NCBI RefSeq assembly: GCF_056712565.1
Contig: NZ_CM160072.1
Direction: 5' to 3' (one strand)
DNA length: 64,000 nucleotides
Position numbers: made by a program. Positions 3,001-9,000 of this stretch are shown here, piece by piece. Within the stretch, counting starts at the first letter, position 1. Every line of letters begins with the position of its first letter.

Positions 3001-6000
3001 TCAGAAATCGAAGGTGACGGATGCACGCACTTCGCGGCCGCCGCCGATAAACGCACTTGGGGAACCGTTATCGCCATCGGTACCCGATGGGAAGATAGAA
3101 GCCCAGTAATGTTTATCAAACACGTTGTTTACCACCACGCGGAAAGTGGTTGGGACGTTGCTCACTTTCGTGGTGTAACGCGTTCCCAAATCCCATGTGG
3201 TATAGCTGCTGGCGTAAGAGGTGTTGGTATCGTTCGCCGCGCGTTTGCCCGTATAATGGACGTTAGCGCTGTAAACCCATTCCGGTATGGACGGCAAACT
3301 GTATTCCGCCAACAGATTGGCCTGCACTTTCGGCACGCCGACAACCTGTTTATTGCTGGTTGAGGCATTCGCCGTATCTTTCAGTTTCGGGTCGAGGAAG
3401 GTCACGCCGCTGTAAATATTCAGCCCCTGCCACACATTCCCGGCAGCGGTTAACTCAAGGCCGTTGTTAACCTGGTTACCCTGCTCTTTATACACGTTAT
3501 CCGTATCAAGATAGGCAAACGGACGTTCCAGTCGGAACAGCGCGGCGCCTAGATTCATCTCGCCGATGTCCGATTTTAGCCCCACTTCATACTGCTTGCT
3601 GCGATACGGGTTTAGCGTTTGACCGGCATTTTTTACGCTCTCATCCGTCGGTGCGGTACCGCCCTGCTCCAGCGAATCGGCATAGCTAACGTAGGCCATT
3701 GTGTTAGGGGTAATTTTATACATCAGCGCGGCGTTCGGACTTAAACCATTTTCATCAACCTGGTTCGTTTGATTACCGTGCTTATCGTAGTTTTTAGTCT
3801 GCAGCCAGCTCTGGCTGAGATAGAACATTGCCGACCACTGCGGCGTAAATGTCACCGTATCGCCGAGCGTAACGCTCTGCTGAGTATTTACGCTGGAGCG
3901 GTATCGCGGCCCGCCGGTGCGGATTTTGCCATCGCCCTGCTCATCTATCGCATCCGGGTGATACATATTTGTTGTACCCCAGCTATAGCTGGAACCTGTT
4001 CCTTTGGCACTATAAAGCGACCAGACATATCCCGTGGTAGAAAGTGACAGATCGTGGCCGATAGAGCCGGTATCAATATGACCATTCAGCCCGGCGGTGT
4101 TGCTCAGGACGCGAAAACGTCCGGCAGCGGTGGAATCCTTCATCGAACGAGAGATATCGCCCTGATTGTTGAGTATTTTACTGGAAACACTACGCATCGC
4201 GCGGTCAGCCTGCTGCCAGCCCACGCCAGCGTTCATGGACCAGTCGTCGTTAAAGTAGTGGATCAGGCGAGTGCTGATGGTATCGGTAGTGAGGTCGTTG
4301 CCCGCAGTGCTGAGCGCCAGATTTTTGTCCTTCGGATTCGGCGCAGACGGCAGTTTGACGTTCGGCCCATAGTTAAAGCTACCGACATAGCCTTTCTGGA
4401 TAAATTCGTAATGGCTGGCGTCGAGCTGTAGCTGAGTGCCCGGCTGAATATTCCAGTCGAGCGCAACGGAAACGAGTTTGCGACGCAGCGTGCTGTCATC
4501 CACATTGCCTTCCCCTTCCTGATCAAGCAGGTTCACGCGATAGCCAAACCGTTTGTTTTCATCAAAATGGCCACCCAGATCGGCATGGCCGGTAAACGCA
4601 CTGCGGCTTTGATAGCCCAGCGTCACTTTACGCAGCGTCTCTTCGGTTGGGCGCTTCGCCACGAAATTAAACTGCCCTGCTGGGCTCGCCGGGCCGTACA
4701 GCGCGCCGGTCAAACTGTTAAGCACATCCATGCGCTCAAGCATTTCCACCGGAAACGCGGTTGTTGAAACGATATTCAGCCCGTCCAGACGGCTGTTGGC
4801 CACCACGCTGCCCTGCATCCCCCGACTTTGCGGACGCCCGACATCCATTCCACCGCGCGCCTGCATTTGCGTACTGGGAGAGTATTTCAGCATCTCGCTG
4901 ACGCTTTGCGCCTGCTGATTTTCAATCATCTCTTTAGTAACAGTGGTGCTGGAATATGGTGTTTCGATCCAGGATTTCGTTCCCAGCGGGCCGACATCTA
5001 TATCGTTCGTTTTGAAACCGGCACCGGCGGCAGAATCGGTGGTGTCGGCGGCGGTGTTGCCCGTGACAATCATTTCATCTTCAGAAGTAGACGAGGCATG
5101 AGCATGAAGCGGTATGAAAGACGCTAATGCTGGCAAAAGCGCAGCGAAAGTTATTTGAGTTTTCATGAATCACTGATCGTTATGTAAATATTTATATTAC
5201 GATCGGTGCATAGGCAAAATTATGATCCAGATCACACGTGAATGTAAGTTATTTACAAATTACGCTAACCTTCTGTCTCCGCTCTTTGCAGCATAAAAGT
5301 ATGGCGGCGCGTTGTTGAAAGCAGGAGCGGCCGGGTTGTCAGAAAGCTGGTTTGGACGCAAGTAATATATAACAACTCTGATTACCGCATACTGTCAGGA
5401 CAGTATCTACTTGAGCGTCCGCCTTTGGCACAAAGCGGACTGTCAGATTAGATTCAGACCTGTACTCATTAGCTGATACAAATCAGCCACATATACCTGC
5501 ATTCAAAATAATTTCAGAAAGATATTATCTCCGTGAATCCCCCGCCACCTTTCCGGTGCACGGGGTTTTGTCTTTTTTCACTGGGAATACATGTATGAAT
5601 CCGTCTGATGCCATTGAGGCAATTGAAAAACCGCTCTCCTCCCTGCCTTACCCGATTTCCCGTCACATCCTGGAACATCTGCGCAAACTCACCCGTCACG
5701 AACCCGTGCCTGGCATTATGGGTAAAAGCGGGGCCGGTAAATCCTCACTCTGTAATGCACTGTTTCAGGGGGAGGTCACCCCGGTCAGTGCACTCATGAC
5801 AGTGCTTCCCGGACATGCCGCCATCCATCTGATGACACGCCTGCAGGACGAACTGCGCACGGAGTCTGTCCGCACTCAGACCCGTGAACAGTTTACCGGT
5901 GCGGTGGACCGGATATTTGACACGGCGGAGAGTGTCTGCATTGCCTCTGTTGCACGCACGGTTCTGCGCGCCGTCCGTGACTCGGTGGTCTCTGTTGCCC

Positions 6001-9000
6001 GCGCGGTATGGAACTGGATTTTCTTCTGAACCCGGTGGTGATGTACCAGGCTGTTGTTACAGATTTTTAACTCCATGAAAACACTATGCAAACGCAGCCA
6101 TACCCGGGGTGTCCCCTTGCGTTGTGTTCCTCAAGTTAATAGAATACATCGATCGTTACTATTATATTGATCGTTATAAACGATCGTTTGTAGTAAATGA
6201 CCTCCTCCGTGGTTGTCATGAAAATGCGTCTCAGGAAGGTTAAATAATGCACGAAAAGAACATCGCCCTGCTTTGTGATGAAGCCGACCGACTTTTGCAA
6301 CTGAACATTAATCTGCTCCGGCAAATGGTTGAGGAGCCAGATGTGTTATCTGACAGTAAGAACGAAAACAGACTGCTTTTTGATAAACAGAAAGCACTGA
6401 AAAGAATTGAGGAGCTGGAGGGCGAACAAATCAAAACCGCCCGCAGGGAGATGGTGCTGGCTGTTGTCGGCACGATGAAAGCAGGCAAATCAACCACCAT
6501 CAACGCCATTGTGGGGCAGGAAATTCTGCCTAACCGTAACCGCCCCATGACCTCTGTACCGACGCTCATCCGCCACGTTCCCGGAAAAACTGAGCCGGTT
6601 CTCCATCTGGAACATATTCAGCCTGTCCGCAATTTATTAATCACACTGCAGGAAAAACTCGCCACCCCGGCAGGACAGCAGGTCGCACAGACCCTGCAGC
6701 AAACCGGGGATACCCGCGAACTGCTGGATATTCTGACGGATGATGGCTGGCTCAAAAATGAATACCACGGGGAGGAGGAAATCTTTACCGGACTGGCATC
6801 GTTAAACGATCTGGTTCGTCTTGCTGCGGCAATGGAGACTGAATTTCCTTTTGATGAATACGCAGAAGTGCAGAAACTGCCGGTGATCGACGTGGAATTC
6901 AGCCATCTGGTGGGGATGGATGCATGCCAGGGAACACTCACACTGCTGGATACCCCCGGCCCTAATGAGGCCGGACAACCGCAGATGGAAGTGATGATGC
7001 GGGATCAACTGCAGAAAGCCTCTGCGGTTCTGGCTGTGATGGATTACACCCAGATGAACTCAAAAGCGGATGAAGACGTCCGTAAAGAGCTTAATGCCAT
7101 TGCTGACGTATCAGCCGGCCGCCTGTTTGTACTGGTCAATAAATTTGATGAGAAAGACCGCAATGGCGATGGGGCAGATGCCGTACGCCAGAAAGTTCCG
7201 GCAATGCTGAACAGCGATGTGCTGCCCGCCTCCCGCGTTTATCCCGGATCCTCACGCCAGGCATACCTGGCTAACCGTGCGCTTCATGAGTTACGGAAAA
7301 ACGGAACCCTTCCTGTTGATGAAGCCTGGGTCGATGATTTTGTCAGGGAAGCCTTCGGTCGCATGAAAAAAGATTACGTCTGTAAAGACAGCGAACTGGC
7401 AACTGAAGGGGCGACAGACCTGTGGGAATGCTCACTTATCGATCAACTGATAACGGAAGTCATACTGAGTTCACACTCCAGAGCTGCGGCACTGGCGGTT
7501 GATTCTGCCGCCGCAAAACTGATGCAGAATGCAGAAAATATCAGTGAATACCTGTCGTTACGCCATCAGGGGCTGATGCAAAGTATTCAGTCACTGCAGG
7601 CGCATATCACCAGCCTGCTTGAGGATATCCGGGAAATAGCAGACTGTCAGGAGCAGGTGACCGCTGATGTCAGAATGGCCATGGAGGAGATCGATGCCAG
7701 AACCCGGGAATTACTGACGGGGGTCTGCACCTCACTGGAAGAGGAGCTGAATGACTATTTCAGAAGCGGTAAACGCAAAGAACAGCAAATGCTGGAGGAA
7801 GAAAATTCAGCGCAGCCCCGGGAGAGAAACGCATTCGCTTTCTTTCACGATATTTTCGGAACCGGAAATCAGCATGACAGGATGCGGGACTTTGATCCCG
7901 ACAGCCCCGAAATAAAATTCAGTGATCGCAGGGAAGCCCTTGAACTGATGACGCAAATCGAATCGACCGTGACCAGCCTGCACCGTGAGGCTGAAGCACA
8001 GTTCCGGCCTGAGCTGGAGAAAATCGTCAGCGGGATTGAAACAGGTTTTCGTGGCACGGCCCTGTACGCCACAGAAAACATTGCCGGTCGCATCAATACC
8101 CGCCTGGAGGATGAGGGCTTTACCGTAAAAATCAGTTTTCCGGCAGTCAGTCAGTTACAAACCCGGCTCGCGGTAAAAACAAATCTGAGTGCGCTTATGG
8201 AGGAAAGAACGGAGACCGTCACCCGTCGCCGTCGGCAGAGTGGTTTATGGGGAAAGATTTGTGGAGCGTTTGGCACCAGTGACTGGGGCTGGGAAACCTA
8301 TAAAGAGGATGTGAGCCGCAGTGTTATCAATATCAACACCGTCAGGAAGGAAGTTATGTCACTGACCCGGGCATATTTCGGGGAGCTGCAGGCATCCATT
8401 GAGCAGGATATTAACCAGCCCGTCCGCCAGGAAATCGATGCCTTTTTCTGCGCATTCAGGGAGAAAGTTGAACAACTGCGTAACACGCTGATTCAGAGCT
8501 CTGAAGATCATAAACGCGATCAGCAGGCACAGGAACGGCTTACCAGGCGACTTCAGGCATTAAATGAAAGGGTTCCTGAGCTCATTACTGACAGTAAGGC
8601 GCTGAGGGAAGAGCTGGAGACAATGCTGTGACTTCACCATTTATTCAACAAATTGCTGATAACCGGGTATGTCAGGTACTCACCTGTCTTCCTGAAAAAT
8701 TTGTGGTTGATTTCGCAAACGGAATCGATGTTGCACAGGAGCATATCCGCACGGCCGGAGAGCGCACGTTCTTCCGGCGTTTAAAAGAGGGACTGACCGG
8801 CGAAGGCGCTGCACGGCAGAATGCCATCAATGCTTCGGTTGCACAGGGCCTTGAGGCGTCCCTGCGCTGGCTGACGGAGCTGACAACGTCACTTGCCACC
8901 ACAAACTACGCGATTACCCGGGTAAACGACAGGGTCAGTTCACTGGTCAGTGATACTGCCAGGCTGGCGCATTATTCCGCAGATACACGGGAGCAGTTAC

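Follow-up and report, generated by a model that had tools for sequence, protein, structure and literature searches.

TRAFAC GTPases require the sequence motifs G1 to G5. In Escherichia coli K-12, the putative GTP-binding proteins YkfA (from island CP4-6) and YfjP (from CP4-57) are 287 residues long and contain the full set of these motifs, while a further gene of the same type, yeeP (b1999, in CP4-44), has lost its 5' end, retaining gene nucleotides 321–873 but neither a start codon nor a P-loop; flu follows it. A search of the literature returned nothing specific on the function of yeeP, ykfA or yfjP. The closest described full-length genes are those of strains APEC O1 and SMS-3-5 (‘GTPase family protein’, WP_001069806.1 and WP_001069805.1, 290 residues), which lie directly upstream of genes for a dynamin-family protein, a YjcZ(RdcB)-like protein and a patatin.

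The window (the whole 64-kb stretch of DNA analysed here) contains an ORF of 144 codons on the + strand, with an ATG start and a TGA stop, that occupies the same island position as K-12 yeeP, between the fit/yoeA receptor remnant and yeeS-yeeT-cbeA-cbtA and near tmaR-yeeA-sbmC. The same ORF is annotated at identical coordinates in CFT073 as a ‘hypothetical protein’ (WP_001069647.1), and the window and CFT073 are 99.98% identical across 18,250 bp. The CFT073 locus is flanked as in K-12, with a TonB-receptor gene (the counterpart of K-12 yoeA) upstream and yeeS, yeeT, cbeA, cbtA, yeeW, tmaR, yeeA and sbmC downstream. By position, the 144-residue ORF thus corresponds to K-12 yeeP within an island of the CFT073/Nissle type, and it is an internally deleted allele of a YeeP/YfjP/YkfA-type, Era-like (Pfam MMR_HSR1) GTPase gene. 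Its features are as follows.

5595..6029, + strand: 144-residue ORF, internally deleted YeeP-type GTPase allele (annotation, DNA alignment, tblastn)
5595..5782, + strand: retained 5' arm, intact-gene nucleotides 1–188, residues 1–63 up to the repeat, with the N-terminal helix region and G1
5721..5744, + strand: P-loop (G1 motif) GKSGAGKS, residues 43–50 (sequence)
5783..5790, + strand: deletion junction, where one copy of the 8-bp direct repeat GGTCAGTG survives
5791..6026, + strand: retained 3' arm, intact-protein residues 212–290, C-terminal helical/hydrophobic tail ending in VVSVARAVWNWIFF
5792..5933, + strand: diverged 142-bp patch directly 3' of the junction (base comparison with undeleted genes)

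No second GTPase paralogue is present within the 64-kb window. An Rfam scan of positions 5100–6400 at E values up to 1 gave no match, and a terminator-like hairpin upstream of the ORF (5540–5580) was not significant (folding z-score −0.93).

The deletion and its junction

As intact references we used the 290-residue orthologues of APEC O1, SMS-3-5 and E94, which occupy the equivalent position in the module and precede the same dynamin gene. The first-pass annotation had proposed an internal in-frame deletion of yeeP, with the N-terminus and its P-loop joined to the C-terminal segment and about 150 central residues missing, and DNA alignment to an intact orthologue bears this out: the two differ by one clean in-frame gap of 438 bp, or 146 codons. 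In tblastn comparisons with the APEC O1 orthologue, residues 1–65 of the window ORF match residues 1–65 (93.8% identity) and residues 62–144 match residues 208–290 (91.6% identity), and the protein reads ...QGEVTPVS|ALMTVLPGHAA... across the junction. Compared with the intact APEC O1 and SMS-3-5 genes, codons 66–211 are missing from the window allele, and 12 base changes immediately 3' of the junction are private to it; the leader upstream and the spacer downstream are both conserved, and the parts in common are 92–94% identical.

The search for microhomology that had been suggested for the junction was productive. The sequence GGTCAGTG occurs twice in the intact APEC O1, SMS-3-5 and E94 genes, at nucleotides 189–196 and 627–634, 438 bp apart, and once in the window allele, where the junction falls inside it. 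Microhomology of at least 8 bp at a random junction has a probability of about 1e-4, and the single surviving copy is, on this sequence evidence, the signature of a microhomology-mediated deletion. We envisage one ancestral event in which 438 bp were lost between the two 8-bp GGTCAGTG direct repeats and one repeat copy was left behind; the footprint is observed directly, and replication slippage or RecA-independent short-homology recombination would be the likely mechanism. Because 438 is a multiple of three, the reading frame of the deleted gene continues, and the 144-codon ORF encodes a fusion of the N-terminal 65 residues, including the P-loop, to the C-terminal 79. A sequencing or assembly artefact in the window merits almost no credence, since the identical junction is found in 921 independently assembled complete records.

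The lesion in K-12 yeeP is a different one. The 3' 250 bp of the two genes are 92% identical in DNA, and both are non-functional remnants, but K-12 yeeP is truncated at its 5' end whereas the window allele is deleted internally (retaining nucleotides 1–196 and 635–873) and is followed by the dynamin-family operon. Nucleotides 321–626 are kept in K-12 and absent from the window, and nucleotides 1–188 are kept in the window and absent from K-12; since each allele keeps parts of the gene that the other lacks, neither can derive from the other, and the two have decayed independently, as had been suggested. The first-pass annotation was right about the deletion but mistaken in taking the K-12 sequence as its full-length reference, because K-12 yeeP itself has no N-terminus; the proper references are the intact YeeP orthologues and YkfA/YfjP.

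Loss of the GTPase domain

The deleted residues (66–211) hold most of the motifs of the GTPase fold: G2 (T71), G3 (DLPG, 90–93), G4 (MQAD or TQAD, 152–155, with MQAD of the intact orthologue aligned to NKTD of Der) and a presumed G5 (SAR, 199–201) that has probably been lost from the window ORF along with them. G1 is the sole GTPase motif left. The P-loop fits the pattern GxxxxGK[ST] and aligns with the P-loop GRPNVGKS of E. coli Der. The window ORF scores 18.9 bits against the Pfam MMR_HSR1 model, under the gathering cut-off of 21.9, whereas the intact orthologue passes with 54.8 bits; a search of NCBIfam gave no match to the window ORF. Given that G2–G4 and the presumed G5 are deleted, and that TRAFAC GTPases need G1–G5, we infer that the 144-residue product cannot be a working GTPase, and GTP binding and hydrolysis are both predicted to have been lost.

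The long form, in contrast, has a full Era/Der-like G domain. It matches Era, Der and MnmE models and structures, and aligns to Der (EngA) residues 3–121 with G1, G3 and G4 in register; these TRAFAC proteins are distant relatives (E values of 1e-7 to 1e-13, far below equivalog cut-offs) with which the window ORF shares the G1 segment alone. YkfA and YfjP belong to the family of the window ORF (42–46% identity over the retained arms) and have in common with it the P-loop context IMGK(S/T)G(A/V)GKSSLCNALF and a C-terminal VVSVARAVW motif; unlike it they are full-length, contain the central region, and lie in other islands with other downstream genes. On the basis of the MMR_HSR1 score, the Era/Der/MnmE matches and the central region of YkfA/YfjP, the long form is ancestral.

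The converse polarity, in which the 144-residue ORF is complete and belongs to a naturally short family of its own, the 290-residue proteins carrying an insertion, would agree with the annotation of the ORF in RefSeq as an ordinary CDS. We regard it as very improbable and effectively refuted. G2–G5 of a canonical GTPase fold, aligned with Der and Era, come from the long form's central segment; that segment is present in the distant paralogues YkfA and YfjP, and in long forms it is flanked by the 8-bp repeat. Among the matches listed from a database of 5.8 billion proteins, the full-coverage matches of 141–144 residues are all from E. coli (91–99% identity) and the others match one arm. Both halves of the ORF match contiguous segments of the 290-residue proteins at 92–94% identity, and the gene is accordingly a deleted YeeP, as first proposed, rather than a shorter distinct protein.

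Distribution and origin of the allele

The deletion junction was found in 921 records, representing 920 of 5426 complete E. coli genomes (∼17%), from lineages that include CFT073, 536, Nissle 1917, ATCC 25922 and ST131. It is therefore an old, common E. coli allele and not a strain-specific one. It always lies directly upstream of the dynamin/YjcZ-like/patatin genes and appears to have travelled with them through many lineages and onto two or more chromosomal islands. A second lineage of the module, about 4% diverged (95.7% identity over 5.3 kb) and represented by MP1, 2009C-3133 and the second copy in Nissle 1917, carries the same junction and the same patch. Upstream of the neighboring dynamin-family operon lies a putative agn43-like three-GATC/OxyR switch (GATC at 6151, 6169 and 6182); nothing specific was found in the literature on Dam/OxyR control of a dynamin-like operon. 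PADLOC, applied to the GTPase, dynamin, YjcZ-like and patatin proteins and two downstream proteins, identified no defined defence system, and gave weak generic matches of LeoBC to GTPase domains and of a phospholipase effector (E 1e-4).

The 142-bp patch found at 95% identity or more defines exactly the same 921 records as the junction, with the next best match at 92.2%. Its 12 base states occur throughout the deletion alleles and in none of the undeleted genes examined, apart from GGA at gene nucleotides 218–219, which is also seen in L014, an undeleted allele whose 5' part is in addition 100% identical to the retained 5' arm of the window ORF. This invariable linkage of the junction to a patch found in no undeleted gene points to a single old origin.

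The patch also bears on how the junction formed. Twelve deletion-allele-specific states fall within gene nucleotides 198–339, directly 3' of the junction; the 5' arm has none, and the rest of the 3' arm has a single one. Such clustering in 142 bp has a probability of about 1e-7 and is not predicted by simple slippage followed by uniform neutral drift. The allele could instead be a product of ectopic recombination in which two diverged paralogous copies were joined at GGTCAGTG, a CFT073-type allele giving the 5' arm and a divergent paralogue, now unsampled, giving the initial ∼140 bp of the 3' arm. Five of the patch changes are synonymous, as expected for divergence built up in a functional gene, and E. 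coli genomes offer a median of two, and up to seven, paralogous places. No donor for the patch is apparent, however: among the undeleted genes of the 5426 E. coli genomes, identity to it reaches 92.2% at most, no intact protein among the matches listed from the protein database exceeds 92% identity to the C-terminal arm, and two signature strings of the patch are absent from 100,044 species-representative genomes (GTDB, exact-pattern scans). An alternative also fits the pattern: the allele is old, and recombination with intact alleles has since homogenized its outer flanks, where the polymorphisms are indeed common to those alleles. We consider such a chimeric origin unlikely, though it deserves some weight; the presence of CTTCCCGGACATGCCGCCATCC or TCCGCACTCAGACCCGTGAACA in an undeleted gene would favor it. 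Its outcome would likewise be a dead GTPase remnant, and only the mechanism of formation would differ.

Continued decay and the question of function

Derivatives of the 144-residue allele that are frameshifted or further deleted exist but are rare (P0022, P0025, P0010, P0017, P0007 and the second copy in Nissle 1917). The gene has been damaged in other ways too. For instance, P0008 has lost 109 codons in frame between 9-bp repeats TTCCGTCTG, a 19-bp deletion shifts the frame in C11, and L014 carries a +1 frameshift. The repeated loss of function by different routes (the 5' truncation in K-12, deletions between 8-bp and 9-bp repeats, and frameshifts) suggests that the GTPase is dispensable once the island has become resident.

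The ORF has nevertheless stayed open in almost every carrier sampled, and in both module lineages, which could hint at constraint. The ORFs of the two lineages differ at 17 of 435 positions (dS 0.076, dN/dS 0.38), but most of these differences are also polymorphic among intact alleles and so probably entered by recombination, and they give no measure of selection after the deletion. Among four deletion and four intact alleles, dN/dS (NG86) ranged from 0.14 to 0.44 over all pairs and did not separate the two classes, with small counts and recombination limiting the comparison.

These observations bear on whether the fusion, comprising an N-terminal helix, a P-loop and a C-terminal hydrophobic tail, is a selected neo-protein with a GTPase-independent role, perhaps modulating the adjacent dynamin-family/YjcZ-like/patatin module, which may be phase-variable. 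The preserved frame, the frequency of the allele (920/5426 genomes), its open ORF in both module lineages and its constant site directly upstream of the dynamin/YjcZ-like/patatin genes are what such a role would lead one to expect, and it would account for the open frame being found in both of those lineages and in ∼17% of complete E. coli genomes. We think it improbable. G1 alone remains and the protein fails the GTPase domain model; dN/dS is no different from that seen among intact alleles, albeit on tiny counts; and some derivatives are frameshifted or further deleted, the second Nissle 1917 copy among them. The module can do without the short form, as other strains have intact 290-residue alleles in front of it, and preservation of the frame is in part a matter of ascertainment, since a deletion that broke the frame would not be read as one ORF. 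We find no evidence for a retained function of the 144-residue product.

The yeeP remnant in the window is an instance of ordinary gene decay, and the allele most likely persists as a neutral remnant. We are confident in the reading as a whole: a relic allele of an island GTPase gene, generated by a single 438-bp repeat-mediated loss, retained neutrally and decayed independently of K-12 yeeP. The finding opens no major question and matters mainly for annotation and for the reading of island evolution. WP_001069647.1 and its relatives, which hundreds of genomes label ‘hypothetical protein’ or ‘GTPase family protein’, are to be read as an internally deleted, GTPase-dead allele, and the junction with its linked 142-bp patch is a clean marker with which to follow how the dynamin/YjcZ-like/patatin module spread among extraintestinal E. 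coli lineages.

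A deleted counterpart of yeeP

Across 18,250 aligned bp the window shares 99.98% identity with E. coli CFT073, a strain in which the short ORF is annotated as a 'hypothetical protein' (WP_001069647.1). Upstream of it in CFT073 are genes for a TonB-dependent receptor and an ABC transporter (substrate-binding protein, FecCD permease and ATPase); downstream are genes for a dynamin-family protein, an RdcB/YjcZ-family protein and a patatin-like phospholipase, then yeeS-yeeT-cbeA-cbtA-yeeW, and then the chromosomal genes tmaR-yeeA-sbmC. The same flanks enclose CP4-44 of K-12, the home of yeeP (b1999), which makes the short ORF the positional counterpart of that gene.

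Features at and before the short ORF
3001-5166 (minus strand): intact gene for a 721-aa TonB-dependent receptor, adjoined by ABC-transporter genes
5540-5580: GC-rich hairpin followed by a T-run (CCCCCGCCACC...GGTGCACGGGG TTTTGTCTTTTTT), kept in all related loci
5595-6029 (plus strand): short ORF, ATG start and TGA stop, 144 aa

An 873-bp gene encoding a 290-aa 'GTPase family protein' precedes the same dynamin gene in strains APEC O1, SMS-3-5, E94 and 2013C-4974. Alignment of the window to these intact loci left a single clean gap of 438 bp (146 codons), with conservation on both sides extending from ~95 bp upstream of the ATG through the dynamin start codon, confirming the internal in-frame deletion proposed in the first-pass annotation. 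In intact-protein numbering the junction reads ...T62 P63 V64 S65 / A212 L213 M214... Mapping it also revealed microhomology: the octamer GGTCAGTG lies at both breakpoints of the APEC O1, SMS-3-5 and E94 genes (nt 189-196 and 627-634, 438 bp apart) and is present once in the window, at the deletion junction (5783-5790). The probability of at least 8 bp of microhomology at a random junction is ~1e-4.

Homology between K-12 yeeP and the intact gene begins only at gene nt 321 (L002:6660) and runs to the stop codon (96.4% over 556 bp), so that K-12 yeeP is a 5' truncation without a start codon or P-loop. It keeps nt 321-626, which are absent from the window allele, whereas the latter keeps nt 1-188, which are absent from K-12 yeeP; since each retains a segment missing in the other, the earlier suggestion of a different lesion and independent decay holds. 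In K-12 the receptor and ABC genes seem to correspond to the yoeA pseudogene, interrupted by IS2, although a blastn comparison of window positions 1-12000 with the K-12 locus gave a match to the yeeP 3' arm alone.

Further independent lesions affect the same gene, including a deletion of 19 bp that shifts the frame in strain C11, a +1 frameshift in an otherwise undeleted allele on a Logan contig (L014, which matches the window at 100% along its 5' arm), and other in-frame internal deletions in database proteins from other E. coli (P0008, P0009, P0012 and P0018). The 109-codon loss in P0008 (181 aa) fits a 9-bp direct repeat, TTCCGTCTG, at intact-gene nt 229 and 556. The gene seems susceptible to deletions mediated by repeats, and the in-frame bias among them is probably an ascertainment effect.

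The hairpin and T-run end only ~15 nt before the ATG of the short ORF and look like an intrinsic terminator of upstream transcription, leaving scant space for a promoter of the ORF's own; the hairpin did not reach significance by folding z-score.

Loss of GTPase motifs

Judged by comparison of family members, the long 290-aa form is the ancestral state. It passes the Pfam MMR_HSR1 model at 54.8 bits, matches the Era, Der and MnmE models, and aligns to residues 3-121 of E. coli Der (GKSGAGKS with the Der P-loop, DLPG with DTGG and MQAD with NKTD). The distant K-12 paralogues YkfA and YfjP (287 aa, 42-46% identical) possess the central segment, as does the long form. The 144-aa architecture was seen in E. 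coli alone in the protein database, which argues against a full-length member of a shorter, distinct family.

The deleted residues (66-211) contain G2 (T71), G3 (DLPG, 90-93), G4 (152-155) and, presumably, G5 (SAR, 199-201), leaving G1 as the sole GTPase motif in the short ORF. Its protein scores 18.9 bits against MMR_HSR1, short of the 21.9-bit cut-off, and has no NCBIfam match. TRAFAC GTPases require their G motifs, and from the loss of all but G1 we infer that the product would be unable to work as a GTPase.

The downstream operon and its putative switch

Features downstream of the short ORF
6117-6186 (core 6130-6186): agn43/flu-like regulatory segment in the spacer that separates the remnant from the dynamin gene
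6151, 6169 and 6182: three GATC sites
6247-8631, 8628-9533 and on to ~10700: three-gene operon (12848-17201 of the CFT073 locus, L001)

The operon encodes a 794-aa dynamin-family protein, a YjcZ/RdcB-family protein (Pfam YjcZ, 2e-71) and a patatin-like phospholipase. The first is CrfC/YjdA-like and scores 550 bits against an equivalog cut-off of 1146 bits, and is therefore a paralogue. PADLOC identified no defined defence system in the module. Nissle 1917 carries the whole module twice, including the GTPase remnant; the second copy (CP007799.1, 270782-287075) is 95.7% identical. A receptor 5'-end and upstream fragment also adjoins that copy, at 99.8% identity.

The spacer segment is homologous to the Dam/OxyR phase-variation switch of K-12 agn43/flu, with a local alignment score of 51 (shuffles, 17.5 +/- 2.2). 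Its GATC sites are spaced by 18 and 13 bp, versus 19 and 13 in K-12, and its promoter reads TTGCGT-17 bp-TAGAAT, versus TTGTCC-17 bp-TAGAAT (-35/-10). The OxyR consensus, reportedly that of Toledano et al. 1994, is matched at 16 of 20 positions by window 6148-6184 and at 14 of 20 by the K-12 region. None of the variable sites among eight related loci falls inside the three GATCs. Elsewhere in the 64-kb window, three GATCs lie within 40 bp only at 29825-29842 and at 5201-5230, the latter intergenic and directly upstream of the TonB-dependent receptor gene.

Phase variation of Ag43 is driven by Dam methylation and OxyR repression at overlapping sites (PMC3764049). By analogy with that mechanism, the agn43-like segment suggests that the dynamin/YjcZ-like/patatin operon may be phase-variable; we found no report of its phase variation in the literature.

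Origin and distribution of the deletion allele

Feature immediately 3' of the junction
5792-5933 (gene nt 198-339): diverged patch of 142 bp, 12 base states, ~8% divergence

The 12 patch states are present in all deletion alleles and absent from the four intact orthologues, K-12 and L014, apart from GGA at nt 218-219, also present in L014. Allele-specific changes cluster directly 3' of the junction (P ~1e-7), with none in the 5' arm; five patch changes are synonymous, and two changes of several bases each resemble compensated +1/-1 indel pairs. The patch may reflect a chimera with a 3' arm from a diverged paralogue, for which searches of E. coli genomes, the listed protein-database matches and, by two exact patterns, GTDB representatives yielded no donor. 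Alternatively, the outer flanks could later have been homogenised by recombination with intact alleles; flanking polymorphisms are common to deletion and intact alleles. Mutagenic repair is another possible source.

A 66-bp query across the junction, of which undeleted genes cannot cover 80%, gave an unbroken match in 921 records, from 920 of the 5426 complete E. coli genomes (including 536, Nissle 1917, ATCC 25922 and ST131 strains). At least 80% of an 851-bp region, extending from before the GTPase ORF into the first dynamin bases, is covered at one place or more in approximately 1868 genomes, so the deleted allele is found in roughly half of module carriers. The identical junction occurs at other chromosomal sites in a second module lineage (MP1, 2009C-3133 and the second Nissle 1917 copy), which over 5285 bp, from the remnant through the dynamin, YjcZ-like and patatin genes, shares 95.7% identity with the window. 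Patch records at 95% identity or above number exactly 921 among the 5426 genomes, equal to the junction records (next best, 92.2%). The junction and patch shared by both lineages, together with these equal counts, lead us to conclude from sequence comparison that the deletion arose once, before the two lineages split.

A retained or new function of the short ORF is very unlikely. Values of dN/dS (0.14-0.44, from fewer than 20 changes per pair) do not tell deleted and intact alleles apart, and most of what distinguishes the two deletion lineages is imported polymorphism. The deletion allele has itself given rise to frameshifted (P0022, and P0025 from the second Nissle copy) and further-deleted (P0007, P0010 and P0017) derivatives, and intact GTPase alleles stand before the same module in other strains. 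The remnant is thus an ordinary allele, old and widespread, of an apparently dispensable island GTPase gene that underwent a microhomology-mediated in-frame deletion; unsurprising in itself, it helps annotation and can serve as a lineage marker.
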